DNA of 64,000 nt from NCBI GenBank assembly GCA_016432365.1, contig CP066686.1, positions 793,501 through 857,500 on the forward strand, given 5' to 3'. Each line of letters starts with the position of its first letter. The stretch's first letter is position 1. Below, in pieces: positions 249 through 48,761 of the stretch. The notes under the pieces were generated by a model. The model was not told the DNA's origin, made no database searches, and saw only the letters and a program-made list of their open reading frames with translations. A program made the position numbers and the translations under genes. The stretch is from Candidatus Woesebacteria bacterium (GTDB lineage Bacteria; Patescibacteriota; Microgenomatia; UBA8517).

Positions 249-249
249 T

Positions 250-24830: not shown

Positions 24831-24832
24831 AC

Positions 24833-26067: not shown

Positions 26068-26086
26068 TTTTATATAGTCATATTAA

Positions 26087-26114
26087 AACAAAATGTCAGT
26101 TTTGACATTTTGTT
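26087..26114 (-). promoter_or_regulatory. perfect 12-bp inverted repeat hairpin between pilD and the downstream pilin
   Basis: AACAAAATGTCA-gttt-TGACATTTTGTT. On the minus strand it is followed by TTTTAATAT. Confidence 0.4.
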
Positions 26115-26143
26115 TGGCAAGCATAGAATTCCTATATACCGAA

Positions 26144-26183
26144 CTCAAAACATAAAGTTGTAAAACCGTCATTTTGTTTTGAG
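26144..26183 (-). promoter_or_regulatory. inverted repeat (9-bp arms, 22-nt loop) just after the pilD stop
   Basis: CTCAAAACA...TGTTTTGAG. Confidence 0.3.
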
Positions 26184-26187
26184 TTTG

Positions 26188-27608: not shown

Positions 27609-27665
27609 CTACAAACTAGTATTCAATGTTTGAATAGGCTTGTCAAGTACCATTATGTAACAATA

Positions 27666-29077: not shown

Positions 29078-29124
29078 GGAACGATTTTATCATTTATCAC
29101 ACAGATGGCCAAGCTCTGCTTATC

Positions 29125-29724
29125 ATGTCAGATGGTATAATTCTTATTATGTATACCGAATTTGAGGCGACATTTACAAACATTGATAAAGACGACACAA
29201 GAAATCGTCTTAAAAATGCGGGGGCAAAATTGATCCGTCCTGAGTTTATGCAAAAACGAGTAGTTTTTAATCTGCCAAAAGGTCACGAAATCCCAGGCGG
29301 CTGGCTTAGAGTCCGCGACGAAGGGGATAAAATCACAATGAGTTTAAAAATAGTTAACGGAGGCAAAATTGACGACCAAAAAGAAACACAATTAACGGTT
29401 AACAGTTTTGACGAAGCAGCAACAATTTTGGAAACAATAGGTTGCGACAAAAAAGCCTATCAAGAAAGTAAACGCGAACTTTGGGAGTTGGATGGGGTGG
29501 AAATTACAATTGATGAATGGCCATTTTTGGAGCCGATTGTAGAAGTTGAAGGAAAATCCGAAGAGGAAGTTAAAAATGTTTCGGAAAAGCTTAATTTTGA
29601 TTATAAAAATGCAAGGTTTTGCGCGGTGGACGTTTTATATAGTGAAAAATATGGAATAAGCCAAGATAGAATAAACAATCACACCCCCGAAATTTTATTT
29701 GACGGGGAAAACCCTTTTACTTAA
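29125..29724 (+). CDS. CYTH-domain (triphosphate tunnel metalloenzyme) protein
   Basis: N-terminal YTEFEATF (ExExK-like start), then RVRDEGDKITMSLK and a C-terminal EIE-like segment (VEITIDEW..EPIVEVEG). Confidence 0.55.
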   Translation: MSDGIILIMYTEFEATFTNIDKDDTRNRLKNAGAKLIRPEFMQKRVVFNLPKGHEIPGGWLRVRDEGDKITMSLKIVNGGKIDDQKETQLTVNSFDEAATILETIGCDKKAYQESKRELWELDGVEITIDEWPFLEPIVEVEGKSEEEVKNVSEKLNFDYKNARFCAVDVLYSEKYGISQDRINNHTPEILFDGENPFT

Positions 29725-30229
29725 AATGAACGACTTCAAAACATACACAGATTACAAGACAGTCCTTTCCGTAAACGCCTTAATTTTTTCCGAAGGCAAA
29801 ATTTTAATGCTTAAAAGAGCGGATGACAAAAAAATTGATCCCGGACTTTATTCCGGGATTGGCGGAAAAGTAGAACCTCACGAAAGTTTTTATAATGCAA
29901 TTCTTCGTGAAATCAAGGAAGAAACAGGTTTGACAGAATTTAAATCAATAAAACCTTATTCGGTTACTCAAATCCCGTACCCACCCACGGACTCTGAATG
30001 GGTAAATGTCTATTTTATTGTCCATATTACGAAACAGGTTGAATTAGAACCAACTGAGGACGGTACATTTCATTGGGTAGGCATCGAAGAAGCCTTAAAA
30101 CTACCAACACCGAACGATGTCCACGATTACCTGGAGATTCTTTCTAAAGACCCCAACGCCTTCATTTTTGGTTTTTATGACCACGACAAGGAAGGAAACC
30201 TAACAAACAAAAAAATTAAAGTTGTCTAA
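29699..30229 (+). CDS. NUDIX hydrolase
   Basis: Nudix box GIGGKVEPHESFYNAILREIKEETGL. Confidence 0.7.
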   Translation: MTGKTLLLKMNDFKTYTDYKTVLSVNALIFSEGKILMLKRADDKKIDPGLYSGIGGKVEPHESFYNAILREIKEETGLTEFKSIKPYSVTQIPYPPTDSEWVNVYFIVHITKQVELEPTEDGTFHWVGIEEALKLPTPNDVHDYLEILSKDPNAFIFGFYDHDKEGNLTNKKIKVV

Positions 30230-31431
30230 AAAGAACTTGTTAAATTGTAAATCGGAAGAATAACAGCAATAACTAAAAATCCAACCCCAAGCCCTAGCAT
30301 TATCATAACCAATGGTTCTATTGCAGCTGTCAAGCCTTTTACCTTCTCGTCGCTTTCCATTTCAAAAATGTGGCTGATTTTGGTTAAAACATCGTCCATT
30401 TTTCCCGTTTCTTCACCCACCGCAATCATCTGAGAAAGTAAAAAGGGGAAAGCCTCGGGGTGCCTTGCAAAGGAAAAGGCGATAGGGAAACCCTTCTCCA
30501 CCTGTCTGGAAACATCTTTTAATGCATCGGAGATGACACTATTTGATACAACTTCACTTGTAATGTTCAAGGCCTCAAGAATTGGAACACCGGCCCCCAC
30601 CATTAAAGACAGGGTTCTTGTAAGTTCTGTCAAAATTACTTGTTTTTGCAGGTTCCCGAAAATAGGAATTTTAAAAACCATTTCATCGACTTTTTTCTTT
30701 CCCATTGCGGTGCTCCTGTAAAGTGTAAACAAATAGTAACCAACACCTCCGATTGCTAAAATGACAAACCAGTAATTAACAAAAAAACCGGAAATTCCCA
30801 TTAAAATTCGCGTAGGTAAGGGGAGTGTGGCATTAAAATCACCATAAAGCGAAGTCAGTTTGGGAATAACAAAAATCATCATTATAAAAACAACTACAAC
30901 CATACCTACCCCGATTATCGCAGGGTAAATTAAAGCCCCTTTAACTTTACCGTTAAATTCTTGCTGCTTTTCCAGGGTATCTGCCAATCTAAGAAGCACG
31001 GCATCCATAACACCCCCGACCTCACCCGATTTAACCAAGGATAAATAAGTTCTGGTAAAAATTTTGGGGTGTTTATTCATGGCACTCGAAAGAGATTCTC
31101 CGGCTTCAACATCCGCCAAAATCTGGGCAACAACTTTTTGCATAGCCCCATTGCTTTGAGATCTAAGTATTAGAAGTGCTTCCGTGATGGGTAGCCCGGC
31201 TCCGATCATTGTTGAAAGCTGACGGGTGAAAGTTGAAATGTCCCCTGTTGTTATCCGTTCTTTGAATTTCTTTACAATCGAAAATGGTGAATCCATTTTC
31301 TCGGAAATAGAAATAACATAAAAGCCCTTGCCCCGAACCAGTTTTGCCGCATGGCTCGTGTCACTCGCCTCGACTTCTCCTGACACCAATCTTCCTTGTC
31401 TGTCTTTGGCCTTGTAATTAAATCTTTTCAT
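30226..31431 (-). CDS. pilC: type IV pilus inner-membrane platform protein PilC (GspF family)
   Basis: Duplicated GspF domains and three TM helices. Downstream of pilB and pilT. Confidence 0.8.
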   Translation of the reverse strand: MKRFNYKAKDRQGRLVSGEVEASDTSHAAKLVRGKGFYVISISEKMDSPFSIVKKFKERITTGDISTFTRQLSTMIGAGLPITEALLILRSQSNGAMQKVVAQILADVEAGESLSSAMNKHPKIFTRTYLSLVKSGEVGGVMDAVLLRLADTLEKQQEFNGKVKGALIYPAIIGVGMVVVVFIMMIFVIPKLTSLYGDFNATLPLPTRILMGISGFFVNYWFVILAIGGVGYYLFTLYRSTAMGKKKVDEMVFKIPIFGNLQKQVILTELTRTLSLMVGAGVPILEALNITSEVVSNSVISDALKDVSRQVEKGFPIAFSFARHPEAFPFLLSQMIAVGEETGKMDDVLTKISHIFEMESDEKVKGLTAAIEPLVMIMLGLGVGFLVIAVILPIYNLTSSF

Positions 31432-31443
31432 GCAGAAGTTTTT

Positions 31444-32502
31444 TTAAACACCTCGTACTAAACGCGCAAGCTCTTCGGGTCTTAACGACCAACTCTGGGC
31501 AACTTCCATAGTTACCAGACCACGTTTTACAAGATCTGCCAGGGAACGCTCAAGAGTGCTCATTCCGGCTTCCTGTGAAGTTTCCAAAATGCTTTCGATC
31601 TGGTGAGTTTTACCTTCACGGATAGAAGTTTTTATAGCTGTGGTCCCCAACATTATCTCGTAAGTAACAACCCTGCCTTTGGTTGTAGAAGGGATTAGTC
31701 TTTGGGAAAAAACCGCCTCAATTACATTTGATAGCTGAAGCTTTACCTGCCCCTGCTGTTCTTCAGGGAAAACATCGACGATTCTGTCGATTGTTTGGGC
31801 GGCACTATTTGTATGAAGAGTAGCAAAAACCAAATGGCCTGTTTCTGCAACTGTTAATGCAGCTGCAATTGTTTCGTAATCACGCATCTCTCCAACCAAA
31901 ACCACATCCGGATCTTCTCTCAGTGCGGACCTTAAAGCTATTTCCCACGAATGTGTATCTGTTTGCATCTCGCGTTGAGAAATGACCGATTTAATCGGCT
32001 TAAAAATAAACTCAATCGGGTCTTCGATGGTTACGATGTGAGATGTGCGGGTTTCGTTAATTTCATCTATCATTGCCGCAAGGGTAGTTGATTTTCCATG
32101 CCCTGTTGGCCCGGTCACAAGAACCAACCCCTGCCTTAACGTCGTAAAAGAATGAAGAATTTTAGGTAGTCCCAAAGCATCTATTTTTGGAATTGTCAAA
32201 GGAATCTGTCTAAAAGCAACTGCTGTAGTGTTTTTCTGGGTATAGGCATTGGCTCTAAACCTGGCCTTATCGGAGAATGGTAAAGAAAAATCAAGTTCCT
32301 TGTTCACGGTTAACCTTTCGATTTGTTCGCTTGTAAGAACTTGTTTAAGAAGTTCGTTGATAGAATCCGGTGTAGAAATACCGGCTCCGGGCGCACTTAA
32401 CAATTCCCCATCCACCCTTAGAGTAGGGGGGACTCCGGCAACCAAATGCAAATCACTGGCTTTCAAGTCAATTGTTTGTTGTAATAATTGTTTGATGTCC
32501 AT
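31444..32502 (-). CDS. pilT: twitching-motility retraction ATPase PilT
   Basis: Walker A GPTGHGKSTT, Asp box, and AIRNLIRE-like TSIREGKTHQI. Length 352 aa. Confidence 0.8.
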   Translation of the reverse strand: MDIKQLLQQTIDLKASDLHLVAGVPPTLRVDGELLSAPGAGISTPDSINELLKQVLTSEQIERLTVNKELDFSLPFSDKARFRANAYTQKNTTAVAFRQIPLTIPKIDALGLPKILHSFTTLRQGLVLVTGPTGHGKSTTLAAMIDEINETRTSHIVTIEDPIEFIFKPIKSVISQREMQTDTHSWEIALRSALREDPDVVLVGEMRDYETIAAALTVAETGHLVFATLHTNSAAQTIDRIVDVFPEEQQGQVKLQLSNVIEAVFSQRLIPSTTKGRVVTYEIMLGTTAIKTSIREGKTHQIESILETSQEAGMSTLERSLADLVKRGLVTMEVAQSWSLRPEELARLVRGV

Positions 32503-32513
32503 AGTTAAACAGT

Positions 32514-32600
32514 CAAAAGGTAAAAGTTAAAAGGTAAAAGTTTCAGAAATTTTTGAATTTTGATTTGTAATTTTGAATTTTGCATTTTGAATTTTGAATT
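32514..32600. repeat. tandem repeats: 2x14-nt AAAAGGTAAAAGTT, then ~7 copies of heptamer TTTGAAT
   Basis: Read directly from the pilB-pilT intergenic sequence. Confidence 0.7.
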
Positions 32601-34344
32601 ACTCTTGTGCAACTCTCAGTATCTCTTCCACTGTAGTGATTCCTTCAGCAACCTTCAAGTACCCATCCTGTTTAAGTGATACCATTCCTGCCTCTCTCGC
32701 TGCATTGTCTATATCTCCGGCCGAGGCCCGTTCCAAAATAAGTTTACCAATTTTTTCTGTTACCGTGATAGTCTCAAAAATACCCATTCTTCCCAAATAA
32801 CCCGAGTTTCCGCAATCCGGGTCCCCCTTACCTCTATAAAGTTTGACCTCTCCCTGTGGCTGCCAAAGACTACCCAATTCTTTCTTCATCTCGCTTACAA
32901 TTTTAGGGTCTGGAACATAACTTTCTTTACAATCGTCATGGATTTTTCTGACAACTCTTTGGGCAACAAGACAGGTAATAGAGGAGGCCAATAAGTACGG
33001 TTCCGCGCCCATGTCTAAAAGCCTGGGTAGTGCACCTGAAGCATCATTTGTATGAAGTGTAGAAAATACCAAATGTCCGGTTAACGAAGCCTGAATGGCA
33101 AGATCCGCAGTTTCGCTGTCGCGGATTTCTCCTACAAGAATAATGTTTGGGTCCTGTCTAAGAAATGATTTCAATCCGTCGGCAAATGTGAGCCCAACAG
33201 CAGTGTTGATTTGGACCTGATTGACGCCGGGGATTTTGTATTCGATCGGGTCTTCCAATGTAACTATGTTGACTTTTGGAGTATTTAGTCTGGATAAAAC
33301 AGAATACAAAGTGGTCGTCTTTCCGGAACCCGTTGGTCCACAAATTAAAATAATTCCATGCGGACGCAAAATTGCATCCTGAAGATCTTTAAGACTTTTA
33401 CCCCTAAGGCCCAATTCCTGAAGCGTAGGGACTCCCCCGGATTTTTTGAGTAAACGCATCACAATTTTTTCTCCCCAAGTTGTGGGCAGAGAAGAGATAC
33501 GAAGGTCTACTTCTTCCTCACTACCTTTAAAGTTGAATCTACCGTCCTGGGGAACTCTTTTTTCGTCAATTTTCATCCCTCCCAAAATTTTGATTCTGCT
33601 TATTAATGAATCGTGCAGTTCCTGCGGAATTGTGAGCTTCTCCTGTAAAATTCCGTCAATTCGATAGCGAACTCGGGTTGACTTTTCTTCGGGCTCAATG
33701 TGAACATCGCTGGCCCTTGATTTAATAGCAAAGTCGAGTATTTGGGATACAATTTCTGCTATTTTTTCTTCTCTTATAAATCCGCCTCTGGAAACTTCGG
33801 CAGCTTTAATTCCTTCTCCTTTTCCTCCGGGTGTAACTTCTTTCATTGCAGCCGTAACCTGTTTGGTTAATGAGGTTGTATAGCGGGTTTGAATAAAATC
33901 GTCCACTTTCATGGGCTCCGCCGCGTAAGTTTTTACATGGAGACCTGTTTTTTGTTCGATAAATTCTATAGCCGCAAGATCCAGAGGATCAGCCATGGCA
34001 AGGCCCAAACTTTTTTCTTTTTTATCGTAATTAACAGGGAAAACTCTAAATCTTTCTGCGACCTCCGAGGGGAGTGCTGCTAAGGCATTGGGGTCAATCG
34101 GAGCAGTGTTTAAATCAACATATGGGATGTTATAGAGTTGGGCTTTAGCTTGAACAAGTTTATCTTCAGGAACCATCGAGGCCTCTTTAATAATGTCTTC
34201 CTGTGTTTTACCGCTTTGAATTTCGGTGAACTTTACCTGTTCGGCACGCCGTGCATCGAGTGCCCCCAAAGTCACTAAAATATCAGCAAGAGTTCCGGTG
34301 GAGTTTAAACTATTAGTACCGTTTACAGGTTGAGCAGTGGGCAT
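32599..34344 (-). CDS. pilB: type IV pilus assembly ATPase PilB (GspE family)
   Basis: N1/N2 domains and Walker A GPTGSGKTTTLY. No tetracysteine motif found. Length 581 aa. Confidence 0.85.
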   Translation of the reverse strand: MPTAQPVNGTNSLNSTGTLADILVTLGALDARRAEQVKFTEIQSGKTQEDIIKEASMVPEDKLVQAKAQLYNIPYVDLNTAPIDPNALAALPSEVAERFRVFPVNYDKKEKSLGLAMADPLDLAAIEFIEQKTGLHVKTYAAEPMKVDDFIQTRYTTSLTKQVTAAMKEVTPGGKGEGIKAAEVSRGGFIREEKIAEIVSQILDFAIKSRASDVHIEPEEKSTRVRYRIDGILQEKLTIPQELHDSLISRIKILGGMKIDEKRVPQDGRFNFKGSEEEVDLRISSLPTTWGEKIVMRLLKKSGGVPTLQELGLRGKSLKDLQDAILRPHGIILICGPTGSGKTTTLYSVLSRLNTPKVNIVTLEDPIEYKIPGVNQVQINTAVGLTFADGLKSFLRQDPNIILVGEIRDSETADLAIQASLTGHLVFSTLHTNDASGALPRLLDMGAEPYLLASSITCLVAQRVVRKIHDDCKESYVPDPKIVSEMKKELGSLWQPQGEVKLYRGKGDPDCGNSGYLGRMGIFETITVTEKIGKLILERASAGDIDNAAREAGMVSLKQDGYLKVAEGITTVEEILRVAQE

Positions 34345-34463: not shown

Positions 34464-36999
<2,536 letters not shown>

Positions 37000-37090
37000 T
37001 CGCTAACAAAGTCCGTCAACCAATTTTGGCATGAGGCGCTAACGAATAGTTCTGAAAAGCCGAATGCGAAAATCAGACGGTCGAAGTTGG

Positions 37091-37660
37091 CTACTTTGGA
37101 TGTTTAATCTTCAACAAATATAGATTTCTTTTTTCCGTATGGTCGCGGCGAAAAGAAGATAATTTTTTATTTTCAAAAGTACAAGTTGGATCGATTGCAA
37201 TATTTTCATTTTTGACATCAAGTCTTACCAACTGTTGACGGGCAACTTCACCCAAATCCAGAAATATTTTCCTTTCTTTTTCGATAACGGCGTTATTGTA
37301 TTTTGAGAACTTTATAGAAACATCATTTTTTATTTCATAATGTTTTGCGCAAATGTGCGGCCCAATTTTTATTTTTAACTCTTCGCTTTTCACTTTTAGC
37401 TTTTCCTTCATCCCGTTAATAGTTTTTTCAATAATTCCATTTTCCAACCCTCGCCAACCTGCATGAATAAGCCCTATTCCTAGGCCTTTTTCGTCACTAA
37501 TCATAATTGGTAAACAATCGGCAACGCGAACACATAAAGTTACATCCGGGTCATTTGTTATCAATGCATCACAGTTGGGGACGGTGATTCCGATGTCCTT
37601 TTTATCAACAACTACAACATTATTTCCATGTATCTGTTGCATTAAAACTATTTTTTGCAT
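37091..37660 (-). CDS. YfiH/PgeF family (DUF152) purine nucleoside phosphorylase / laccase-like protein
   Basis: LIHAGWRG and a CxxH-like PHICAKHYE. Confidence 0.7.
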   Translation of the reverse strand: MQKIVLMQQIHGNNVVVVDKKDIGITVPNCDALITNDPDVTLCVRVADCLPIMISDEKGLGIGLIHAGWRGLENGIIEKTINGMKEKLKVKSEELKIKIGPHICAKHYEIKNDVSIKFSKYNNAVIEKERKIFLDLGEVARQQLVRLDVKNENIAIDPTCTFENKKLSSFRRDHTEKRNLYLLKIKHPK

Positions 37661-37728
37661 TTACTGATTATATCTTGTTTGTAATTTGGTTCTTGAATTT
37701 TATAATTTCGCGACTAAAATTGTGATAT

Positions 37729-38205
37729 ATGGATTTTAAAGCGTTCATCGAAATTCCACTAAACTCAAACATTAAATATGAAGTGGATGAAGAAACAGGG
37801 GAGCTTACAGTGGATCGATTTCTCCATACAGCGATGAGTTATCCTTTTAATTATGGTTATGTTAAAGAAACAAAGGGGAAAGACGGCGACCCGCTTGATG
37901 TTTGCATTTTTTCCTCTCTTCCGGTCACCCCCGGGGTGGTTATGAAATGCCATGCTATCGGCCTTTTGGAAATGGAAGATGAAGGGGGAATAGATACAAA
38001 AATCTTTGCAGTTCCGGATAAAAAAATTGATCCGATATTCGGAGTTTGGACAAGTGTCAAAGATGTCCCGGAAGTAGTTCTAGCCAGAACCAGACACTTT
38101 TTCGAACATATGAAAGAGCTGGAACCGGGGAAATGGGTAAAGACGGGCGAATTTAAAGACGCCTCGGAAGCAGAAAAAGAAATTGAGGCTTCCAAAAATA
38201 AATAG
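37729..38205 (+). CDS. ppa: inorganic pyrophosphatase (family I)
   Basis: EIPLNSNIKYEVD, YPFNYGYV and DGDPLDVCI. Confidence 0.8.
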   Translation: MDFKAFIEIPLNSNIKYEVDEETGELTVDRFLHTAMSYPFNYGYVKETKGKDGDPLDVCIFSSLPVTPGVVMKCHAIGLLEMEDEGGIDTKIFAVPDKKIDPIFGVWTSVKDVPEVVLARTRHFFEHMKELEPGKWVKTGEFKDASEAEKEIEASKNK

Positions 38206-38989
38206 CATTTCTATGCCGAAAATTTTATTGTCTTTGTCGTTGTTTGTTTTACTTCTTGTCGTTTTTTCCTCGCCCGTTTCCGCAAATCACACTTGGAATG
38301 GATATCATTGGGCCCGAACCTCAAATCCATTTGCTTTAAAACTTGGAGATAATGTTACTTCAGGTTGGGACACATATTTGGCCACAGCTTCTTCTGATTG
38401 GACCACATCCGACGTCCTCGATACAGCGATTGTTGCCGGACAAGGCGGCAGAACCTGTAAGGCAACCAACGGAAGAGTTGAGGTCTGCAACAAAAAATAT
38501 GGAAACAACGGCTGGCTGGGAATTGCCCAAATATGGATTACCGGCGGGGTACATATAACTCAAGGAGTAACTAAAATGAATGATACCTATTTCGGTAAGC
38601 CTGCGTACAACACACCAGCCTGGAAACAAATGGTGATGTGTCAGGAAGTGGGGCATACTTTGGGCCTTGATCATCAAGATGAAATTTTTGACAATGCCAA
38701 CCTTGGAACCTGTATGGATTATACGAGCGATCCAAGTACAAACCAGCATCCCAATCAGCATGACTACGATGAGCTGAATACTATATATAGTCACCTTGAC
38801 AGTTTTACTACGATTGGTCAGACGACAGGACAGGTGGCCAGACAGCTTGGGCAACTCGCAGCAAACCAAGATCTTGATAATCCAGGAGAGTGGGGCAGGT
38901 CAATACGTGACAACGGCAAGATTGCCGTATTTGAACGCAACCTTGGCTTGGGAAACAAAGTCTTCACATTTGTAATTTGGGCCAAGTGA
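38183..38989 (+). CDS. secreted metzincin-like protein with a QExxHxxGxxH variant motif
   Basis: Signal peptide. VMCQEVGHTLGLDHQDE matches the metzincin HExxHxxGxxH motif except that the first His is Gln. Confidence 0.35.
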   Translation: MRLPKINSISMPKILLSLSLFVLLLVVFSSPVSANHTWNGYHWARTSNPFALKLGDNVTSGWDTYLATASSDWTTSDVLDTAIVAGQGGRTCKATNGRVEVCNKKYGNNGWLGIAQIWITGGVHITQGVTKMNDTYFGKPAYNTPAWKQMVMCQEVGHTLGLDHQDEIFDNANLGTCMDYTSDPSTNQHPNQHDYDELNTIYSHLDSFTTIGQTTGQVARQLGQLAANQDLDNPGEWGRSIRDNGKIAVFERNLGLGNKVFTFVIWAK

Positions 38990-39008
38990 CTTCCTTAATT
39001 CTTCGTTT

Positions 39009-39659
39009 TTGCAATGGTATACTAAATTGATGCTTAAAATTGTCTCCTGGTTATTAATAATTTTAGGACTCGCCTTGCTAATTTTTATTTTTGGACCCGT
39101 TATTAAAGAGGAAATTAAATACAGCTTTGATCAGATGTCTCGTGTTAAATACGTCATAGGCACTGAACAATTGGATACTTTTGAAAAACCGCTCACTCCA
39201 CCAAACACAGATTTCTCTGTAATTATCCCCAAAATAGGTGCCGTGGCTGCAATTTCCGAAAACATAGATCCCAAAGACTCGAGTACTTACCTACCGGCTC
39301 TCAAAAACGGACTAGTACAGGCCACAGGGTCGGCCAACCCGGATAACGATGGAAATATCTACCTTTTCGCTCATTCGGCCGACACTTTTTGGCATGTTAA
39401 TACTTACAACACTAAGTTCCTTTTGATAGATAAATTAGCCCTGGATGACGAAATTGATATTTTTTACAAAGGTAGACTAATAAAATATACCGTTTTCAGC
39501 AAAAAAATCATAGAAACGCAGGCTGCAGTATTTACGGGTAGCCTTGACCCGGACTTAAACCCCTCCGGCTTTATAAAAACACTCACCATTGAGACCGGCT
39601 ACCCGGCCGGGACGACTTTCAAAAAACTCATAGTTACGGCATGGCAGGTGAATCCTTGA
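39009..39659 (+). CDS. sortase-fold homolog lacking the catalytic Cys and Arg (pseudo-sortase)
   Basis: N-terminal TM anchor. GNIYLFAHS retains the His, but TLTIETG replaces the TLxTC Cys motif. Aligns with the true sortase at 44751. Confidence 0.4.
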   Translation: MQWYTKLMLKIVSWLLIILGLALLIFIFGPVIKEEIKYSFDQMSRVKYVIGTEQLDTFEKPLTPPNTDFSVIIPKIGAVAAISENIDPKDSSTYLPALKNGLVQATGSANPDNDGNIYLFAHSADTFWHVNTYNTKFLLIDKLALDDEIDIFYKGRLIKYTVFSKKIIETQAAVFTGSLDPDLNPSGFIKTLTIETGYPAGTTFKKLIVTAWQVNP

Positions 39660-39708
39660 CATCCCAATAACTGATAGTATAATCTCAAATTGTCCAACCT
39701 AAATTCGC

Positions 39709-42700
39709 GTGAAAAACAAACTTTTTAGAAAAATAATCTCGGTATTCGCAACTTTTGCGCTTCTTTTTAATTCTGTTGCACCTTATTCGCTTGCAGTCGC
39801 GCAAGAAATAACCCCAAGCCCAACACCCGATGCAACCACTCAACCGACAGAGCAGCCAACGATTGCACCCACAGACACCGTTTCACCAACAGCCACACCA
39901 GATGCAACACCAACAGAAATAGCCAGTCCAACACCAGAGGTAACAGCAACACCTACCGATTTAGCAACACCGACACCTTCCGAAACCCCAGCCGAAACCC
40001 AAGCACCGGAAAGCAGCCCCACAGTTCAAGGACCACCCTCAGATGAAAATAAACAAATAAACGAATCTGCAAATCTACAAATTTCCACACCAACTGCAAC
40101 GCCTGTAGTGCCAGTTGAACATGGAAACATTACAACCACCACAATAGAAAATGTCGATCTTTCGGGCATAACATTACTTAACTCAAATTTAAACGGGGCA
40201 TCTGTTACAACAGATAAACCAGATTATTCACCCACAAGCATTGTTCTTATTACCGGCACGGGTTTTACAGCAGATAAAACATATACTATAGTGATATCCT
40301 CAACCGACGAGCCTCCGGTAACCCATATAGATAGTGTAACCGCCGACACCCAAGGAACTTTTAGTTACGCCTACCAGCTCGATGGCAACTACCGACCGGA
40401 TTATAAAATTGAAGTAAAGAGTGGGGAAGTGGTGGTAGCATCAACAAGTTTTACTGACAATGGGGCAAAAATTGACAAACTCTATAAAAACGCTGGTCTT
40501 TTAACCGAGGGTTATCAATTTGCTGTCAATGAAACTGTATATGCAAAAGCGACCAATTTAACCACAAGTCGTGGTTATAAATTTGAAGCAAAAAATTCTT
40601 CAGGGGTATCAATGTACCTGGGTGCATGTAAAACAGGTTCAACAACTGCTAGCGACTCTTTTACTCCTACAACCGTGTCAGGAAGTTCAAGTTGGACTTG
40701 GATTCTACATGAATGGTCGTCAAACACTTGTTCAAGCGGTCCACAAAGCGAAGATTCTGACAACACACTCGCATTCAACGTAGCACAAGCTACCGCCTAT
40801 ACAACATCGGGGTTGTCTACCACCACAACATCTTACCTAACCGGTGCAACGGCGTATGTCAAAATAAATGGTCTACATCAAAACGATAACGATTGGGATG
40901 TTACCTGGATTAAACCAGACGGTACTACTGCCTGTGCAAATACAAGTAGTGGTGATCGTCCAAACTCTTCCAGCAATGGGGTCCTCCCTGATTCGTCTCC
41001 TTCGTATTTAGAATACCAACCAAGTACAGGTAGTAATAACTGGAACGATCCAACAAAGTATGACGGTTCTTGTCCGGCTTTTACCAGTGGAAATACAGGT
41101 CTTTGGAAATTAATCGTATCCCAAGACTCAACACACACAGTTACTTTTTCCGTATTTTCTGTAGCAACACCTTTAGATACCACACCACCCAACACAACCA
41201 TTGACTCCGGACCAAGTGAAAATGTACCAAGTACCTCAGCAACATTTGCATTTAGCGCTAACGAAACATCGACTTTTGAATGTAAATTGGATGGCGCATC
41301 ATTTTCAACTTGTACATCAACAAAATCATATTCAAGTCTTTCTCAAGGGTCCCATACATTCCAAGTTAGAGCTACCGACACGGCAGGGAATGTCGACTCT
41401 ACACCTGCAAGTCAAACTTGGACAGTTGATACGGTTGCTCCAACAATTTCAGCAGCAGTAAGTGCAGGGACACTTGGTTCAAATGGTTGGTACACAAGCG
41501 ATGTTACGGTTCATTTCACCTGCGCTGATACAGGAGGGTCCGGAATTGCATCTTGTCCGACAGATCAAATTTTAAGTACAGAAGGAAGCTCTGTAAGCTC
41601 AACTGCTCAAACAGCCACAGATAATGCGGGTAACACCAGCGCATTAAGCAACGTTGTTACTGTAAAAATCGATAAAACAGGTCCTACTGCTACCCTTGTA
41701 GTTACAGCTGGGGACTTGGGCCTAAACGATTGGTACACAAGCGATGTTACGGTCGCTACAAGTTGTTTTGATGGAATTAGTGCCATTACCGCATACACAT
41801 CTGATCAATCTCAAACAACCGACACGGCAGGACAAACTTTCAACGGATGGTGTGAAAACTGGGCAGGCTTAACTACAAACGCCTCACCATTAACTATCAA
41901 ATTGGATAAAACATCCCCAACTGCAACATTCAGTTATTCAACAACATCACCTACAAACAGTGATGTTCTTGCCACCCTAGTTCCAAGTGAGACGGTCACG
42001 GTTACCAACAATGGAGGACTTTCGACATATAATTTTACATCGAACGATTCTTTTACTTTTGAATTTAGAGATGAGGCCGGTAACATCGGAACTGCAACCG
42101 CAACTGTAGACAATATAGATAAAACTGCCCCAACTGTTACATATACCGACCCAACACCGGCAAACGGAACTCTTACAAACATCAATAACCACACATTTAA
42201 AGTTTCTTTAAGTGAAGAAGTTTCCAGCTGTAAATTAATCGCCGAAAATGGAGATTTCGAAAATGGCCTAAACGGATGGACAACTGGGGGCAACACAGCC
42301 CTAACTACCAGTACTTACCACTCTTCAAACCATAGTTTACAACTCCAAACAACAAACGATAATGTGGGAGGTAGTTATAACTACGCATTTACTACAGCAA
42401 ATCTTCCTGGAAGTGGTTTGATCAATTTAAATGCATGGCTAAGCCGTTCAACCACTGACGGACCTTATTGGGATCAACAGAGAATTTATTTAACCGATCT
42501 TTCAGGAAATATGTTGGTTGATTTGTTATATGGCCTTGAAAATTCAAGTTGGACGAATGTGAATTATGATATTTCTGCATACGCCGGACAATCCGTAAGG
42601 GCCTATTTTGCAGTACACGATGACGGGGCCGGCGACCCTTCCAGAATGTTTGTTGACGACGTTTCAATTACCGGTGGTTTCCAAGGCGGTGAGCACCCAA

Positions 42701-43935
42701 TGGTTGTCGATGGATTAGAAGCTACTTTAGATTGGAACGATATGCCTGATGCAAATTACAATCATTATGTCCAATGTACAGATTTGGCAGGAAACAATGG
42801 AAATTCAGAAAATAGGACATTAACCATTGATACTCAAGCGCCAGTTCTTTCCGACAAAACAGCATTTGACGATTCCTGGTACACAAGCGACCAAACATCG
42901 AATTTTGATTATTCAGATGTAAACGGTATTGCCTCGGGCAACCCCGCCAGTTGTGTAATTTCCACAGAAGGCTCTGCTCAAACTTGTGAGGTTATTGACC
43001 CCAATGTTTGTGACAATGCCGGAAATTGTAACCACGACACGGTTACATCTAATGGCGTAAATATCGACAAATCCGGTCCAACTTTGTCAGCCGATCCGCC
43101 GGCTGGCAACTACAGCTCTACTCAATTCGTTACCTTAACCGGAAGTGATGCTGGAAGTGGAGTAAAAGACATTTATTACACAATTGACGGTTCAACACCC
43201 GATGAAACAAAAACTCTTTACACGAGCGGGTCAACAATAACAGTAGATGACGATATGACCATTAAGGCAATTGCGTATGACAATATTGGTAATGCGAGTG
43301 ACGTATTGGTAGCTACCTATGGAATGGCGCCTGTTATATCAGCTGAGGATGGTATGGGTTCGGGTCATACATCCGCGAGAATTACGTGGACAACTGATAG
43401 GCCGGCAACTTCGAGAGTTGTTTACGACACAGTAAGTCATCCAGCTCTGGATAGCGAACCCAATTACGGATACGCCTTTTCAACAGGGACTTTTGATACA
43501 GATCCAAAAGTGCTGGCTCACTCAATCTCAATTGACGGACTTTCTGCAGGGACAACTTATTACTACAGAACAATCTCAACCGGTTCGCCGGCAGCTATTG
43601 GAGCTGAACACTCACTTTCTACACTTACATACTCAGGACCACCCAGCGCAGGTGGTAACAGTGGAACAGTTCTTGGAATCTCCACAACACAAGCTGACAG
43701 TTCATGGCCCAAGCTGGCCTTTGCAGGAACAACGGATTCTAACGGTTCAACCGAGAATGTTCTTGGAACCGAAACAACAGCCGGTACACCCTCCGCCGAC
43801 TCAACCATACAGACGGAACAAGATGAAAAAGTAAACTTTATGAAGTGGATATTGAGTCACAAGAAGATTTCCCTGGGAGTTGTCCTAGTCCTAATCGCTG
43901 TTGGTTATTACATATCTAAAAGGAAAAATAAGTAA
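39709..43935 (+). CDS. giant cell-surface protein (1408 aa) with a signal peptide, Thr/Pro linker and C-terminal TM anchor
   Basis: Signal peptide, a PTPxATP-type linker (residues ~35-110), many Ser/Thr-rich beta domains with repeated DKTxPT / WYTSD units, and a C-terminal TM segment plus KRKNK. Confidence 0.55.
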   Translation: MKNKLFRKIISVFATFALLFNSVAPYSLAVAQEITPSPTPDATTQPTEQPTIAPTDTVSPTATPDATPTEIASPTPEVTATPTDLATPTPSETPAETQAPESSPTVQGPPSDENKQINESANLQISTPTATPVVPVEHGNITTTTIENVDLSGITLLNSNLNGASVTTDKPDYSPTSIVLITGTGFTADKTYTIVISSTDEPPVTHIDSVTADTQGTFSYAYQLDGNYRPDYKIEVKSGEVVVASTSFTDNGAKIDKLYKNAGLLTEGYQFAVNETVYAKATNLTTSRGYKFEAKNSSGVSMYLGACKTGSTTASDSFTPTTVSGSSSWTWILHEWSSNTCSSGPQSEDSDNTLAFNVAQATAYTTSGLSTTTTSYLTGATAYVKINGLHQNDNDWDVTWIKPDGTTACANTSSGDRPNSSSNGVLPDSSPSYLEYQPSTGSNNWNDPTKYDGSCPAFTSGNTGLWKLIVSQDSTHTVTFSVFSVATPLDTTPPNTTIDSGPSENVPSTSATFAFSANETSTFECKLDGASFSTCTSTKSYSSLSQGSHTFQVRATDTAGNVDSTPASQTWTVDTVAPTISAAVSAGTLGSNGWYTSDVTVHFTCADTGGSGIASCPTDQILSTEGSSVSSTAQTATDNAGNTSALSNVVTVKIDKTGPTATLVVTAGDLGLNDWYTSDVTVATSCFDGISAITAYTSDQSQTTDTAGQTFNGWCENWAGLTTNASPLTIKLDKTSPTATFSYSTTSPTNSDVLATLVPSETVTVTNNGGLSTYNFTSNDSFTFEFRDEAGNIGTATATVDNIDKTAPTVTYTDPTPANGTLTNINNHTFKVSLSEEVSSCKLIAENGDFENGLNGWTTGGNTALTTSTYHSSNHSLQLQTTNDNVGGSYNYAFTTANLPGSGLINLNAWLSRSTTDGPYWDQQRIYLTDLSGNMLVDLLYGLENSSWTNVNYDISAYAGQSVRAYFAVHDDGAGDPSRMFVDDVSITGGFQGGEHPMVVDGLEATLDWNDMPDANYNHYVQCTDLAGNNGNSENRTLTIDTQAPVLSDKTAFDDSWYTSDQTSNFDYSDVNGIASGNPASCVISTEGSAQTCEVIDPNVCDNAGNCNHDTVTSNGVNIDKSGPTLSADPPAGNYSSTQFVTLTGSDAGSGVKDIYYTIDGSTPDETKTLYTSGSTITVDDDMTIKAIAYDNIGNASDVLVATYGMAPVISAEDGMGSGHTSARITWTTDRPATSRVVYDTVSHPALDSEPNYGYAFSTGTFDTDPKVLAHSISIDGLSAGTTYYYRTISTGSPAAIGAEHSLSTLTYSGPPSAGGNSGTVLGISTTQADSSWPKLAFAGTTDSNGSTENVLGTETTAGTPSADSTIQTEQDEKVNFMKWILSHKKISLGVVLVLIAVGYYISKRKNK

Positions 43936-43999
43936 CCTATAACTTTGCCTCTTGACAAGCAGGGAAAGTACTGTTATTATTCCACCATAGTTATATATT

Positions 44000-44812
44000 A
44001 TGACTAAATTTAATTCAGGCAAAGCTTCGGTTTTAGCGCTTACGTCTGTTTTCGTCGTCGCGACTTTTCTCCTTGGTAAATCCCTGACTTCTGTTTTTGC
44101 CAGGGCTGGTGATGTTCCAAAAGCGTACTGCCATGCAGCTGGGCGTGAGGAAACTGATCACTTTAATTATCATTACAATCGGGCTTGGACATCTCACTTT
44201 TATAATAACGGAACACCGAAAGCAGGTCACGAAGACGATTTCTACACAGTAGTAGGGGACAGAAATTGTGACGGTCAAGCAGACTCAAGCCCTACGCCGA
44301 CACCTACACCTACGCCGACAGCAACTCCTAGAGAATGCGAAGAAGATGAGGATGAGTGCAGTACACCTACACCAGAACCGACAGCAACCCCGGAAATAAC
44401 TGACGCTTGTCCAAATATTGAAGGTATTCAAGACTCCATACCGGAAGGATATTTCCTAAACAGTGATGATAACTGTGTCGAGGGAGAAGAACCCACACCA
44501 ACTCCAGACGCTGATGTCTGTGACAACCTTGATGGTGTTCAAACGGGATTACCAGAAGGAATGCATTTTGATGCCGCAGGTGTAAATTGTGTAAATTTTG
44601 GTCAAAGTGGGCCAGCACCCAGGAACGACGAAGGAACAGGTGGGCAGGTATTGGGAGCCTCCACTGTAAGAGGCCAAGTATTGGGCGCTTCCACAATGGC
44701 AAAAACAGGTAGTTTTGAAGAAAGCCTTTATATAGCTATAATGGGTGTAGGTGCAATCATTACTACGCTCGGTGCGAAAAATCTCAAGAAAGCTTTCAAA
44801 GCGGCTAACTAA
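44000..44812 (+). CDS. surface protein with Cys-containing repeats and a C-terminal sortase-type sorting signal (MAKTG-like)
   Basis: Signal peptide, TPTPTP linkers and repeated C-x-N-x-x-G-[IV]-Q modules. C-terminus is MAKTGS + hydrophobic stretch + KNLKK. Overlaps the downstream sortase gene. Confidence 0.45.
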   Translation: MTKFNSGKASVLALTSVFVVATFLLGKSLTSVFARAGDVPKAYCHAAGREETDHFNYHYNRAWTSHFYNNGTPKAGHEDDFYTVVGDRNCDGQADSSPTPTPTPTPTATPRECEEDEDECSTPTPEPTATPEITDACPNIEGIQDSIPEGYFLNSDDNCVEGEEPTPTPDADVCDNLDGVQTGLPEGMHFDAAGVNCVNFGQSGPAPRNDEGTGGQVLGASTVRGQVLGASTMAKTGSFEESLYIAIMGVGAIITTLGAKNLKKAFKAAN

Positions 44813-45356
44813 ACTTCAAGTTAAACTTCAGAGTGGTAAAAACCCAATCATTGTCGTAACCTTCGGCATGTTTCTTATTTTTGTAGGAGCCTCCCATTAC
44901 TATCAACTGCGGATTTTATCGTTTAGGGGGCCTCTTGCCATGGCACAGAACGCACAAAGGGGCGAGTTGCCGGTTCAGATTACTATTCCCTCTATAAAAA
45001 TTGACCAGCCGATCGATGTAGGTACAATCCAAAATGGCGTTTGGCTTATCTCATATGAGCACCCGACTTTTTTAGATACTTCGGCCAGGCCGGGAACAGG
45101 CGGAAATACAGTTATTTATGGTCACAATAAAAAAGTTATTTTTGGAAACCTGCCATATGTAAGTATCGGCCAAAATGTTTTTATCAAGGTTGCGAGTGGG
45201 AAAATATATAAATATGAAATTTATCAGAAAGATTTTGTTAGTCCCGATAGAATAGATTTGGTTTCACCGGAAAATAAAGAGGACTTAACAATCTACACTT
45301 GCTGGGGCTTATTTGATTCACAACGTGCCGTTATAAAGGCAAGGCCTATGTTTTGA
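44751..45356 (+). CDS. sortase (transpeptidase)
   Basis: N-terminal TM anchor, catalytic His in VIYGHN, LTIYTC Cys motif and a downstream Arg (KARP). Confidence 0.65.
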   Translation: MQSLLRSVRKISRKLSKRLTKLQVKLQSGKNPIIVVTFGMFLIFVGASHYYQLRILSFRGPLAMAQNAQRGELPVQITIPSIKIDQPIDVGTIQNGVWLISYEHPTFLDTSARPGTGGNTVIYGHNKKVIFGNLPYVSIGQNVFIKVASGKIYKYEIYQKDFVSPDRIDLVSPENKEDLTIYTCWGLFDSQRAVIKARPMF

Positions 45357-45450
45357 CCTATTATTTCTTCACCCTTGTTCGGATGCTCCTTGTAAGTTAA
45401 AATGACACCCGAGAAGCTGGCTAGCTCATTTAACACAAGGAGAAAACCGA

Positions 45451-45942
45451 ATGAAAAAGATCGTTTTTGTCGTACTTACCGTGTTGGCTCTGGTTTTAAT
45501 GCCAACCACCTCCGCCTTCGCAAGCGGCGGATTCAATGAATTCGGCTACAACTACAACGCCCACATCTTCGTTGGCTCGGCCGATGGAGTTGATCGTGTG
45601 TTGGACGGCGCTGTTTGGGGCGACCCGACTTATGCCAACGACCATCTGGTCATGAAGTGGAACGCTGCCTGGGACGCATGCAACGATAACGGATATGATG
45701 ATCCGGCTTTCTGCGCAGGCGCCTGGACCACAAACGAATACAACGGCATGAATCCTGATGGAAGCCAAAGCAGTTGGCATTACAAGATCATCTGGGTCGG
45801 CTCGTTGGGGTCCGCGAGTCCTTACTGGCGCGACGGCGGTTATTCCGTTTGGGGAAATTACGAAGTCATTCAAGACTTCGGTTTTGACCCTACCGGCCAT
45901 TACCGCTTTGCCCTGGCCCGCCCTGCAGGCCTCGGACACTAA
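45451..45942 (+). CDS. small secreted Trp/Tyr/Gly-rich protein in a locally GC-rich gene (probable horizontal acquisition)
   Basis: Signal peptide MKKIVFVVLTVLALVLMPTTSAFA. Strong AAGGAG Shine-Dalgarno site. GC content and codon usage (GGC, GCC, CTG) differ clearly from flanking genes. Confidence 0.6.
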   Translation: MKKIVFVVLTVLALVLMPTTSAFASGGFNEFGYNYNAHIFVGSADGVDRVLDGAVWGDPTYANDHLVMKWNAAWDACNDNGYDDPAFCAGAWTTNEYNGMNPDGSQSSWHYKIIWVGSLGSASPYWRDGGYSVWGNYEVIQDFGFDPTGHYRFALARPAGLGH

Positions 45943-46133
45943 ATAACTATAAAAACAGAGATTTGACGGCCTAAAGCCATCGAATAATGCTAGCCAGCTC
46001 CTCTGTTTTTTTTGTTTTAGTATCTCCCCATTGCTTCATAAATATTGTTGAGGTAGAATCATTTAAGGCTAATTGAGCCTGTTTTTTATGTTCGTAATTA
46101 TTAATTCTTAGTTATTAATTCTTAATTTAGCTT

Positions 46134-48761
46134 ATGGATATCGGTAAAATTCAACAAACAGAGATAACCAGCGAACTTTCTAAATCATATTTGGATTATG
46201 CAATGAGCGTTATCGTCGCCCGGGCCTTGCCGGATGTACGGGACGGACTTAAGCCGGTTCACAGGAGAATTTTATATGCAATGCATTTGATGGGACTTCA
46301 TTTCGTGGGTTCTTCCACAACAAAATCCGCCAAGGTCGTTGGAGAAGTTTTAGGAAAATATCATCCACATGGAGACATGGCAGTCTACGACGCGATGGTC
46401 CGACTTGCCCAAACTTTTTCCATGCGTTATCCCTTAGTCCACGGTCAGGGAAACTTTGGATCCGTTGACGGCGATCCTCCCGCAGCCATGCGTTACACCG
46501 AGGTTAAACTCGCAAAAATAGCAGACATGATGCTTGCGGACATGGAAAAAGAAACCGTCGATTTTACGGACAACTTTGATGCAACACTTAAAGAACCTGT
46601 TTTCCTTCCCGCAGTTTTACCCAATTTGCTTCTTATGGGAAGCGAGGGAATTGCGGTGGGAATGGCTACAAAAATTCCCCCTCATAATTTAACTGAATTG
46701 GTTGATGGCATAACCGCTATGATCAAAAAAGGTAAGGTTATAACTGAGCAAAAGGCGCAGGAAGAACAAACCGATTTTGTCATCAAAAAGATTAATTTGG
46801 TAGCTTCGGGTGAGGCCAAAGCATTAACCGAAGAAGAAGTTAACCCAACAGCAGTCTCTTTTGAAAGCGAAATAGATATCGACGAACTAACCAACATTAT
46901 ACCCGGACCTGATTTCCCAACAGGCGGTGCGATTTACGATGCCAACGGACTAAAAGAACTTTACGCTACAGGGCGCGGCAAAATAGTTGTCAGGGGAATT
47001 GCAGAAATTGTAGAGGGTGCTAAAGGCAAGCAGCAAATAATAATCAGCGAGCTTCCATATCAAGTAAATAAGAGTGAACTTGTAGCCAAAATCGCCGAAC
47101 TCGTAAAAGATAAAAAGGTTGTAGGAATTGCAGATCTAAGAGATGAAAGCGACAAAGACGGTATGAGGGTAGCGATAGACCTCAAACGCGATGCAAAACC
47201 AAAATCCGTTTTGAATAATATTTTCAAACACACCAGACTTCAAAGCAGTTTCCCTGCAAATTTTGTGGCACTTGTTGACGGCACCCCCCACACATTAAAT
47301 CTCAAAACAATTCTTGTTGAATACGTTAAACACAGACAAAGAGTTGTTATAAGGCGCACTATTTTTGAATTGACCGAAGCCAAAAAACGCGCTCATATTT
47401 TGGAGGGGCTTAAAATCGCACTAGACAATTTAGATGCAGTAATCAAAACCATCAGAGAAAGTAAGACTCAGGAGGATGCCAAGAAAAACTTAATTGAAAG
47501 GTTTAAGCTGTCCGAAATCCAGGCAACTGCAATCCTTGATATGCAGCTTAGAAGGTTGGCTGCACTTGAGAGAGAAAAGATTGAAAAAGAATATGCTGAA
47601 ATCAAGAAACTGATAGATCAACTTGTTGCAATTTTGAAAGACCCCAAACAGGTTTTGAATATTATTGTTAAAGAGCTGGGAGAGCTAAAAGAAAAATACG
47701 GAGACGAAAGAAGAACCAAAATCTACAAAAACCCGCTAGGGGAAATCAGCGAAGAAGATTTAGTTGCTAAAGAGGAAACGTTAATCACCGTTACAAAAAC
47801 CGGCTATGTTAAACGGCTTTCGGCAACAAGTTACCGCGCGCAGCGTCGGGGTGGTAAGGGTGTAATCGGAATGGCAACAAAGGAGGAGGATGAAATAGAA
47901 CACATTTTATCCGCCACCACTCACGACACGATATTATTCTTTACCAACAAAGGCCGTGTTTTCGGGCTAAAAGCATGGGAAATTCCGGAAAGCAGTAGAC
48001 AGGCAAAGGGACAAGCTCTTGTCAATTTGTTGAATCTTGAACAGGGCGAAGAAATAAAATCTATTCTTCCGCTTTCTAAAGAACTCGGAATCAAAAATTT
48101 GGTAATGGCCACCAAAAACGGACTTATTAAAAAGACCGGCATTGACGAATTTGAAAACTTAAGAGCGTCCGGGCTTATTGCAATTAAACTCAGAGACAAC
48201 GACATGCTTATTTCGGTTCATCCGACAACGGGGGATGACCACATCATTCTTCTTACAAGTAATGCAAAATCAATAAGATTCCCGGAGTCAAATGCCAGAC
48301 CCATGGGCCGTGCCACAACCGGGGTAACGGGAATAAAAATGGATGCAGGAGATGAGTTGATTGGAATGGAAGTGTTCCCGACAAAAGAAAATATCCCAAC
48401 CGATAAAAGGAAAAAATTCTACCGCGACATTTTGACTATCGCCGAACACGGACTTGGGAAGCGTACCCCAATCAATCTTTTCCCTGTACAAAAAAGATCA
48501 GGTAAGGGTGTTAAGGCGGCGGTGGTTTCGGCAAAAACAGGGAATCTAAAAACTGCCGCGATGGTCACTGAAAAATTTGATCAGGTGATAATTACTTCAA
48601 AAATGGGGCAGGTGATTAAACTGCCATTGAAAAATATTCCCCAACTTGGAAGAGCTACACAAGGAGTAATACTTATGCGTTTTGCAGATAAAGCAGATTC
48701 GGTTGCGGCTGCTGCGGTTTTAGAAAAAGGAGTGGATGACGAAGAAGAAGAGGAGGGTTAA
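46134..48761 (+). CDS. gyrA: DNA gyrase subunit A
   Basis: [24 protein letters not shown], active-site Tyr region (AMRYTE), and a beta-pinwheel C-terminal domain ending in an acidic tail. Confidence 0.9.

Follow-up and report, generated by a model that had tools for sequence, protein, structure and literature searches.

Why should a small gene for a secreted protein stand out so sharply from its surroundings, in base composition as well as in the strength of its ribosome-binding site, and what keeps it that way? The question is raised by a locus in a genome of Candidatus Woesebacteria, studied here within a 64,000-nt stretch of contig CP066686.1 (hereafter the window, in whose coordinates all positions are given). 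The gene is an intact open reading frame (ORF) of 163 codons on the plus strand at 45451-45942, with an ATG start and a TAA stop; its product is listed as "hypothetical protein HYV90_04650" of Candidatus Woesebacteria (QQG41417.1). We posit that the surrounding region 45375-46013 is a self-contained monocistronic cassette in which pairing between the untranslated regions (UTRs) at the 5' and 3' ends would stabilise a highly expressed mRNA of a secreted protein, an account that we hold to be probable, if well short of assured, on what the sequences of this and related loci reveal.

The principal evidence is a 15-nt inverted repeat that brackets the gene and is complementary at 14 of its 15 positions. 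Its 5' arm, GAGAAGCTGGCTAGC, lies on the plus strand at 45411-45425 and pairs with the 3' arm, GCTAGCCAGCTCCTC, at 45989-46003 (together inverted repeat I2). By a score of complementarity between upstream and downstream flanks, this gene is the strongest of 62 in the window (33, against a mean of 17.9 and a standard deviation of 2.9). The 5' arm is identical at eight homologous loci (L001, L006, L082, L083, L097, L102, L107 and L108), and the same arms flank homologues of 65-78% identity at L006, L082, L083, L095/96, L097, L102, L104, L107 and L108, at L082 in a different genomic context. Homologues of 53-63% identity carry complementary arms at the same positions with other sequences, namely GGGGGTTGGCAAGC / GCTTGCCAACCCCC in L038, L134 and L139, GGGGTTGGCAGGC / GCTTGCCAACCCC in L143, L145 and L146, GGGGGTTGGCGGCC / GGCTGCCAACCCCC in L115, and GGCTCA(A)TCTTGGCA / TGCCAAGAT(T)TGAGCC in L054 and L179. 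Across the resulting three sequence classes only the core TGGC/GCCA is invariant, and pairing is still kept. Counted on a gapless alignment of 16 loci that uses this core as its anchor, paired cells make up 92.5%, and both sides have changed in 10 of the 15 pairs; none of 500 shuffles scored as high, and sliding the partner by 1-3 columns left 25-53% of cells paired. Read from these alignments, the pattern shows gene flanks kept complementary by compensatory change across the sequence classes.

The arms occupy fixed places in what looks like a compact transcription unit. A sigma-70-like promoter can be read from the plus-strand sequence at 45375-45403, with a -35 element TTGTTC (45375-45380), a 17-nt spacer and a -10 element TAAAAT (45398-45403); a consensus promoter scan did not call it. 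A promoter of the form TTGnnn-16/17-TAnnnT ends 5-9 nt upstream of the arm at 10 of the 11 class-1 loci analysed (at the eleventh, L006, the sequence begins 3 nt upstream of the arm), and likewise at L145 and L115. Since the promoter stands at a fixed distance 5' of the arm, in genomic contexts that are otherwise unrelated, the mRNA is predicted to begin with this arm. Sequence homology of the window to L001 sets in at 45371, 4 nt upstream of the -35 element. Conservation among the homologues starts at the 5' arm and ends past a U-tract downstream of the gene, in five homologous loci directly after CTCTGTTTT. The non-coding flanks are 97.5% and 96% identical to those of L001, although 32-48% of synonymous sites differ between the two copies.

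Downstream of the stop codon, in order and all on the plus strand, lie the 5' strand of a stem that we call P1 (AAAAACAGAG, 45951-45960; inverted repeat I3), a second hairpin, P2 (ATTTGACGGC / GCCATCGAAT, 45961-45985), the 3' arm, and the 3' strand of P1 with the U-tract (CTCTGTTTTT, 46001-46013), the predicted 3' end of the transcript; the 3' arm overlaps the P1 3' strand by 3 nt. Folded by itself, each class-1 and class-2 3' UTR forms P1 (45951-45960 with 46001-46010) and the inner hairpin P2, both of which are present in the minimum-energy fold at 13 of 13 loci, with the 3' arm left unpaired in the P1 loop. The 3' end of the gene has the make-up of an intrinsic terminator, in the form of the 10-bp P1 stem with TTTTTTTT, and at most of the loci P1 is followed by a U-tract; the loop of about 40 nt accounts for its having been missed by a consensus scanner that allows loops of 3-8 nt. 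Both stems differ in sequence between classes with pairing kept (ACAGAG/CTCTGT against ACGGAG/CTCCGT is one example), and P2 reads TTAATCAAT/ATTGATTAA in L095 and AAGGC/GCCTT in L038. An additional hairpin with a GAAA tetraloop lies between promoter and arm in L038, L134 and L139. A search of the region against Rfam returned nothing near any gathering score. Between the cassette and the gyrA gene downstream stands a second, canonical terminator-like hairpin (AGGCTAATTGAGCCT and a T-run, 46066-46089 on the plus strand, the hairpin itself at 46066-46080), which the scanner did call and which is identical in L001. A reading of the 3' element as an integron attC site was dropped, as neither an R''/R' consensus nor an array was seen by eye.

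Co-folding of the 5' and 3' UTRs replaces P1 with the long-range helix and keeps P2, at a gain of -13 to -24 kcal/mol over the separate folds at all 13 loci. In the mechanism that we propose, the transcript would start with the first nucleotide of the 5' arm (about 45411) and stop near 46010, terminated by P1 and the U-tract, with P2 and the 3' arm enclosed in the terminator loop. Once released, the mRNA would pair by its 5' end with the loop-borne 3' arm, displacing part of P1 and closing the message end to end. Given the element order of 5' arm, P1 5' strand, 3' arm and P1 3' strand, the combined structure would be pseudoknot-like, and the overlap of a few nucleotides between the 3' arm and the P1 3' strand implies that the two helices can exchange or stack. 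Such pairing would protect the message at both ends, against 5'-end-dependent decay at the one and against 3' exonucleases at the other, while translation should stay on, since the Shine-Dalgarno sequence (45437-45442) lies outside the paired arm. A strong Shine-Dalgarno sequence, C-ending codons and end pairing may together yield high expression, in a genome most of whose genes have no Shine-Dalgarno site. The product would be a Sec-secreted protein of about 138 residues, predicted to consist mostly of beta strands.

Complementary flanks that join the 5' and 3' ends of an RNA are familiar from the processing stalks of rRNA operons and from the panhandle or cyclisation sequences of RNA viruses, where they serve RNase III processing or replication. 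The RNA flanked here differs from these in being a protein-coding mRNA of 490 nt, and its helix (15 bp, or about 23 bp when stacked on P1) falls at the low end of what RNase III accepts as a substrate. The nearest case that has been studied is the hbs mRNA of B. subtilis, in which a 14-bp interaction between 5' and 3' UTR limits cleavage by RNase Y (Braun, Durand and Condon 2017, PMC5737220); hbs is a small, strongly translated message, and the pairing ties its stability to translation (PMC5737220). The present locus shares with it a small monocistronic gene, a strong Shine-Dalgarno site and about 14-15 bp of pairing between the UTRs of one mRNA, and the features that would mark an hbs-type interaction, namely complementary UTR segments of at least about 14 nt and pairing kept by compensatory change, are both present. 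It differs from hbs in that the transcript is predicted to begin with the 5' partner, that the 3' partner sits in the loop of a terminator hairpin in a pseudoknot-like topology, and that the pairing covaries across divergent, horizontally spread homologues and is known here from sequence alone. In the icaR mRNA of S. aureus, the 3' UTR has the Shine-Dalgarno region as its pairing partner, and translation is thereby repressed (PMC3868564). That case is likewise one of long-range pairing between both UTRs of a single bacterial mRNA; here, however, the Shine-Dalgarno site lies outside the arm at 45411-45425, and repression of initiation is not expected.

Several points weigh against this account. 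Everything said at the RNA level is read from DNA, with transcript ends taken from the positions of promoter and terminator. The covariation count is favoured by anchoring on the core and by the choice of that core for best complementarity, and the 16 sequences in it are related to each other. RNAalifold, run on a MAFFT alignment of the 3' UTRs, returned no consensus structure, a null that stems from misalignment, the P1 3' strand being offset by indels. The mismatches in the helix include A.C besides G.U, so that wobble asymmetry is no proof of a sense RNA strand. The U-tract after P1 is missing in L095, L097 and L145. The model leaves the raised third-position GC of the window copy, relative to its sister copies, without an explanation. 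Finally, outside classes 1-3 most copies of the gene end in ordinary local terminators and have no long-range helix; the helix is therefore not essential to the gene and represents one of several leader and trailer solutions within the family.

Other flanking arrangements in the family are of varied kinds. The sister actinobacterial copies L028 and L036 carry unrelated complementary pairs of 12-14 bp, at about -80 and at +51 to +60. In the Caldisericota-type copies L023 and L154, apparent 5'-3' complementarity was rejected as a case of the long-range helix and ascribed to a Shine-Dalgarno/anti-Shine-Dalgarno-like sequence beyond the local terminator. At L142 and L031 repeated GC-rich palindromes (GGGGCGTTCAATTGAACGCCCC) lie 3' of the gene, resembling repeats of the repetitive extragenic palindromic (REP) type, and the complementarity that they create was discounted. 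Seven Chloroflexi-type copies (L063, L062, L045, L073, L024, L015 and L181) have a second AAGGAGGTG-like motif 60-100 nt upstream, in a long leader; the motif resembles a 5' mRNA stabiliser of the Shine-Dalgarno type, and in L073 a reading frame of 7 codons follows it.

The feature that first drew attention to the gene was its composition, from which the initial annotation concluded that it was probably horizontally acquired. The observations behind that conclusion hold. The two peptides quoted in the annotation are found in the intact 163-codon ORF, whose GC content is 0.543 against 0.409 for the whole window, and a 300-nt sliding profile peaks at 0.55 within the gene and falls to 0.35-0.37 on either side. 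Among the 63 window ORFs of at least 100 aa, the GC content at third codon positions (GC3) is 0.628 for this gene, compared with a mean of 0.368 (standard deviation 0.038, maximum 0.462) for the other 62, a z of 6.7. The codons named as foreign are indeed enriched relative to the rest (GGC 0.55 against 0.18, GCC 0.47 against 0.29, CTG 0.33 against 0.08, GAC 0.54 against 0.40), as are AAC, TAC, TTC, ACC, ATC and CGC, and the synonymous-codon likelihood is the lowest of the 63 by a narrow margin (z -2.3). No ribosomal-protein or EF-Tu gene with which to calibrate codon preference lies within the window. The ribosome-binding site was also correctly described: AAGGAG stands at 45437-45442 on the plus strand, 8 nt 5' of the ATG, and a match of at least 6 nt to the consensus occurs in only 3 of the 63 ORFs. 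As a separate observation, a TAnnnT hexamer resembling a -10 element ends 4-11 nt before the start codon in 20 of these ORFs (3-13 in shifted controls), which suggests that many mRNAs of this Woesebacterium genome are leaderless. A chimeric assembly is ruled out by the exact protein occurring with identical neighbours on 5 contigs from at least 3 sequencing runs and, likewise, on a chromosome of 1,078,985 bp; the DNA runs of the groundwater samples from which it comes are SRR12113419, SRR12113420 and SRR12113422.

The explanation that competes best with ours is a recent acquisition, in which the gene and its own Shine-Dalgarno sequence would have come from a donor of about 55% GC and not yet drifted, the flanking repeat being incidental. 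It would account for the GC3 outlier, the rare strong Shine-Dalgarno site and the atypical codon usage in a transfer-prone family; about 13 of 80 representative genomes, mostly from the candidate phyla radiation (CPR), carry a copy with GC more than 0.12 above its flanks, and class-2 CPR copies, which cluster with one from Anaerolineae, show raised values of both C3 and G3 (the C and G shares of third positions). The window copy itself, however, behaves otherwise. In the window and at L001, L006, L083, L102 and L108 the family gene is followed by gyrA, and GyrA at these five loci is 98%, 84%, 84%, 84% and 83% identical to that of the window, respectively, so that the gene has evidently kept its place while considerable divergence took place around it. 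The copies closest to the window protein, at about 77% identity, have a GC3 of 0.42-0.50 in flanks of 0.41-0.44 GC, most of them also adjoin gyrA, and these low-GC3 copies carry the same UTR arms. The GC3 excess is, moreover, due to C3 alone (0.45-0.48 in the window and L001 copies, against 0.21 in gyrA), G3 being at the background level of 0.18, in contrast to family copies from GC-rich hosts, in which both are elevated.

Comparison with L001 points the same way. The synonymous divergence (dS) of the gene is 0.42, below the 0.78 of gyrA; T-C differences are roughly symmetric (13 against 8), and GC3 stays at 0.63-0.67 in the two copies after this divergence. Of the properties looked for in genomic islands, composition is atypical, but the gene occupies the same site in relatives, no tRNA gene was found in the window, and no integrase or other mobility gene lies nearby. 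Selection for C-ending codons, as where expression is high, or a swap within the clade for a C3-rich allele would fit these data at least as well as a recent import, and we regard recent arrival as doubtful. The verdict on horizontal acquisition is thus divided: the family is mobile, as set out below, and the window copy is no fresh import from a GC-rich donor but appears to be an old resident with a C3-specific codon bias. A sharp, C-only GC3 anomaly in a gene that is syntenic within its clade need not, in other words, signal recent transfer. Five of the records used (L001, L006, L040, L059 and L068) are titled "uncultured Gammaproteobacteria"; for L001 and L006 these labels look wrong, given GyrA identities of 98% and 84% to the window and flanks of about 40% GC, which mark both as relatives of this Woesebacterium, and they are perhaps wrong for the other three as well.

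The mobility of the family is evident from its distribution. A large protein database holds 941 homologues at E-values up to 0.001; owing to the uniformity of the core family, clustering at 50% leaves 305 representatives, and none of the listed homologues has a Pfam domain, and all that are named are called hypothetical. Data with one genome per species gave 174 relatives, of which the best 80, at 48-94% identity, were used for the counts of distribution, neighbours and GC against flanks. Hosts in the CPR are Woesebacteria, Levyibacteriota, Roizmanbacteria, Collierbacteria, Jorgensenbacteria, Saccharibacteria and WWE3, those among DPANN and other archaea are Nanoarchaeota, Woesearchaeota, Aenigmatarchaeota, Bathyarchaeota, Methanomethylicales and Nitrososphaerales, and further copies occur in Chloroflexi, Actinomycetota (including Nanopelagicaceae), Caldisericota, Bacteroidota, Planctomycetota, Thermoanaerobaculia, Spirochaetota and others; the copies span more than 20 phyla and both domains. 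Phyla are thoroughly mixed in a neighbour-joining tree of the proteins, and gene GC tracks flank GC across the representative genomes (r 0.85). The archaeal copies retain signal peptides, and L030 and L041 have TATA-like boxes upstream (by eye), so that they look resident rather than mis-binned. All-against-all clustering of the ORFs at the 80 loci revealed no neighbouring family that recurs beyond chance, and with copies of 48-94% identity in many phyla and no conserved neighbours, the only reasonable reading for the family is repeated transfer between phyla and between domains.

If the proposed helix travels with the gene, gene and UTRs might together form a portable unit whose self-closing mRNA directs high-level production of a foreign secreted protein with a new fold in very different hosts, among them CPR bacteria mostly without Shine-Dalgarno sites. 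We offer this extension tentatively. It would represent a conserved end-to-end pairing of a prokaryotic mRNA that moves with its gene by horizontal transfer, and the architecture would be a rare one, with covariation across divergent homologues and a 5' end paired into the terminator loop; the idea of an end-protected mRNA also becomes directly testable in this system.

A mobile family with an inverted repeat around the gene invites a different interpretation, in which the arms would bound a small, non-autonomous mobile cassette and act at the DNA level, as its terminal inverted repeats or as recombination sites. In its favour, the repeat encloses the whole gene, accompanies it to other contexts (as a comparison of L082 with the window illustrates) in a highly mobile family, and at L054 begins directly after an apparent 3' end of a tRNA. 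The anatomy argues otherwise. A positionally conserved promoter lies outside the 5' arm, a conserved P1 strand and the U-tract lie outside the 3' arm, and both P2 and the GAAA-tetraloop hairpin of L038, L134 and L139 covary in the manner of RNA. The 64-kb window holds a single copy, a target-site duplication is not apparent, the inspected loci have neither a transposase nor an integrase next to them, and no gene family recurs near the gene at the 80 loci. Neither plasmid nor phage collections contain a homologue, and all 11 matches to the arm 16-mer in viral contigs lie in coding sequence and are attributable to chance; a viral search for the protein itself found one distant relative of 31% identity, on a putative viral contig. 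A miniature inverted-repeat transposable element was rejected on these grounds (promoter, P1 and U-tract outside the repeat, one copy in 64 kb, no duplication), a terminal-inverted-repeat cassette is unlikely, and we give DNA-level action of the arms little credence. At L054 (about 5915-5950) the 5' arm directly follows an apparent tRNA 3' end, with T-arm-like and acceptor-like segments ending in CCA, and at L105 and L106 a tRNA-like sequence lies about 70-130 nt after the stop codon, all as judged by eye; such copies could mark integration hot spots or co-transcription with tRNA processing.

The encoded protein gives few clues to its role beyond its overall character. The initial annotation had described a small protein with a signal peptide, rich in Trp, Tyr, Gly, Asp and Asn, and this description is supported. 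By inspection, residues 1-24 (MKKIVFVVLTVLALVLMPTTSAFA, 45451-45522 on the plus strand) form a signal peptide that begins with MKK, continues with a hydrophobic core of 14 residues and has a predicted cleavage site after AFA (AFA|S). An N-terminal hydrophobic segment is present in every homologue of alignment A1, and the structural model places a helix at residues 2-15, with lower pLDDT (AlphaFold's per-residue confidence) there. The mature protein (residues 25-163, with the stop codon 45523-45942 on the plus strand; alignments A1 and A8) is modelled by AlphaFold as mostly beta strands with two short helices. A first model reached a pLDDT of 85.6, and a second, built from 78 diverse sequences, reached 92.6 (its five models all scored at least 90.6) and left the order of strands and helices unchanged. 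A fold search, which predates the model of pLDDT 92.6, found no convincing relative in the PDB; PDB sequence searches with narrow and wide family profiles returned noise only, and Pfam, NCBIfam, PHROGs and PADLOC contain no family for the window protein at E-values up to 1. Pfam searches of 10 longer distant relatives were also uninformative, the sole one with matches being a repetitive outlier of 614 aa, and a literature search on sequence motifs found nothing relevant. The protein family is thus an undescribed one without a solved structural relative.

The family is under strong purifying selection, as shown by a dN/dS of 0.07 between the window and L001 (dN 0.029, dS 0.42). Among 33 aligned members of the core family, 29 columns are invariant, including Cys77, Cys88 and many Trp, Tyr, Asn and Gly residues, and Asp64 and Glu138 are invariant as well. 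In the wider family only Gly32, Gly42 and Trp70 remain invariant, with Tyr33, Asn34, Lys69, Trp74, Trp92, Asn95, Lys112 and Trp134 nearly so. Conservation of Asp64, Glu138 and the cysteines is lost there, which argues against a fixed Asp/Glu catalytic pair. Avidins and microbial lectins are small secreted binding proteins with a patchy taxonomic spread, and the present protein is like them in its length of about 130-140 residues, its signal peptide, its beta-rich and Trp/Tyr/Asn-rich make-up and its patchy occurrence across distant taxa. The initial annotation had likewise been reminded of small lectin- or bacteriocin-like beta proteins. No match to a lectin or carbohydrate-binding module was found by sequence or fold. 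Our guess, which we think has a fair deal less than an even chance of being right, is that the protein may be an abundant extracellular binder of a carbohydrate or small ligand and not an enzyme or toxin; it counts against this part of our account that the idea comes only from the protein's composition and its conserved Trp, Tyr, Asn and Lys positions. With at least about 50% identity across both domains and a concentration in uncultivated small-genome lineages (CPR, DPANN and freshwater Nanopelagicaceae), a family with a confidently predicted fold and no solved relative is a suitable target for structural and ligand work on how such cells meet their surroundings.

The sporadic spread of the family would also be explained if the protein were secreted as an antimicrobial in competition between microbes, be it as a bacteriocin-like toxin or as a lytic enzyme. 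A small, secreted, disulfide-bonded and horizontally spread protein with invariant Asp64 and Glu138 in its core family would suit that role. No conserved adjacent immunity or export gene was found at the 80 loci, however, the acidic residues and cysteines are not conserved in the wider family, neither sequence nor fold matched known bacteriocins, toxins, nucleases or lysozymes, and sequence conservation this high would be unusual for a weapon in an arms race. We consider this role a long shot. The protein is no sortase substrate either, as it ends in ...RPAGLGH without a hydrophobic tail, and a sortase adjoins the gene only in the window, L001 and the L143/145/146 lineage among about 170 loci.

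Some relatives show further domain architectures. A Gly/Thr/Tyr-rich beta domain of about 100 residues (WxVxGxW...GxFxGxGxY...YxWxVxG) is present in P0128, P0131, P0138, P0153, P0196 and P0238 and at L081 (7947-8909), either fused to one of the ends or placed as an insertion that separates the WVG strand from the SPYW loop; it has no Pfam match. One fusion with this accessory domain at the C-terminus is located on a putative viral contig, and one longer relative contains two tandem copies of the core domain.

In the wider neighbourhood, gyrB (35071-36999) and gyrA (46134-48761) are separated by a block of surface-protein genes (37000-45400) that includes a protein of 1408 aa, a Pro/Thr-rich protein of 270 aa with a MAKTG end followed by a hydrophobic tail, and a sortase. 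L001 has a GyrA of 98% identity; its counterpart of this upstream region (1-5920) cannot be aligned as DNA, and its sortase shares only 30% identity with that of the window. The surface block is thus exchanged between close relatives, while the target gene and gyrA remain in place. In its longest form, the sortase ORF (GTG at 44751) overlaps the preceding gene for the 270-aa protein by 62 nt (44751-44812); its start is uncertain, as one public gene call begins later and gives 138 aa (locus L182). Further upstream, on the minus strand at 21343-34344, lies a type IV pilus-like cluster. It comprises a PilB/T2SSE ATPase (32599-34344) together with some ten small ORFs, 147-250 aa in length, which are possibly pilins and for the most part have high second-position GC.

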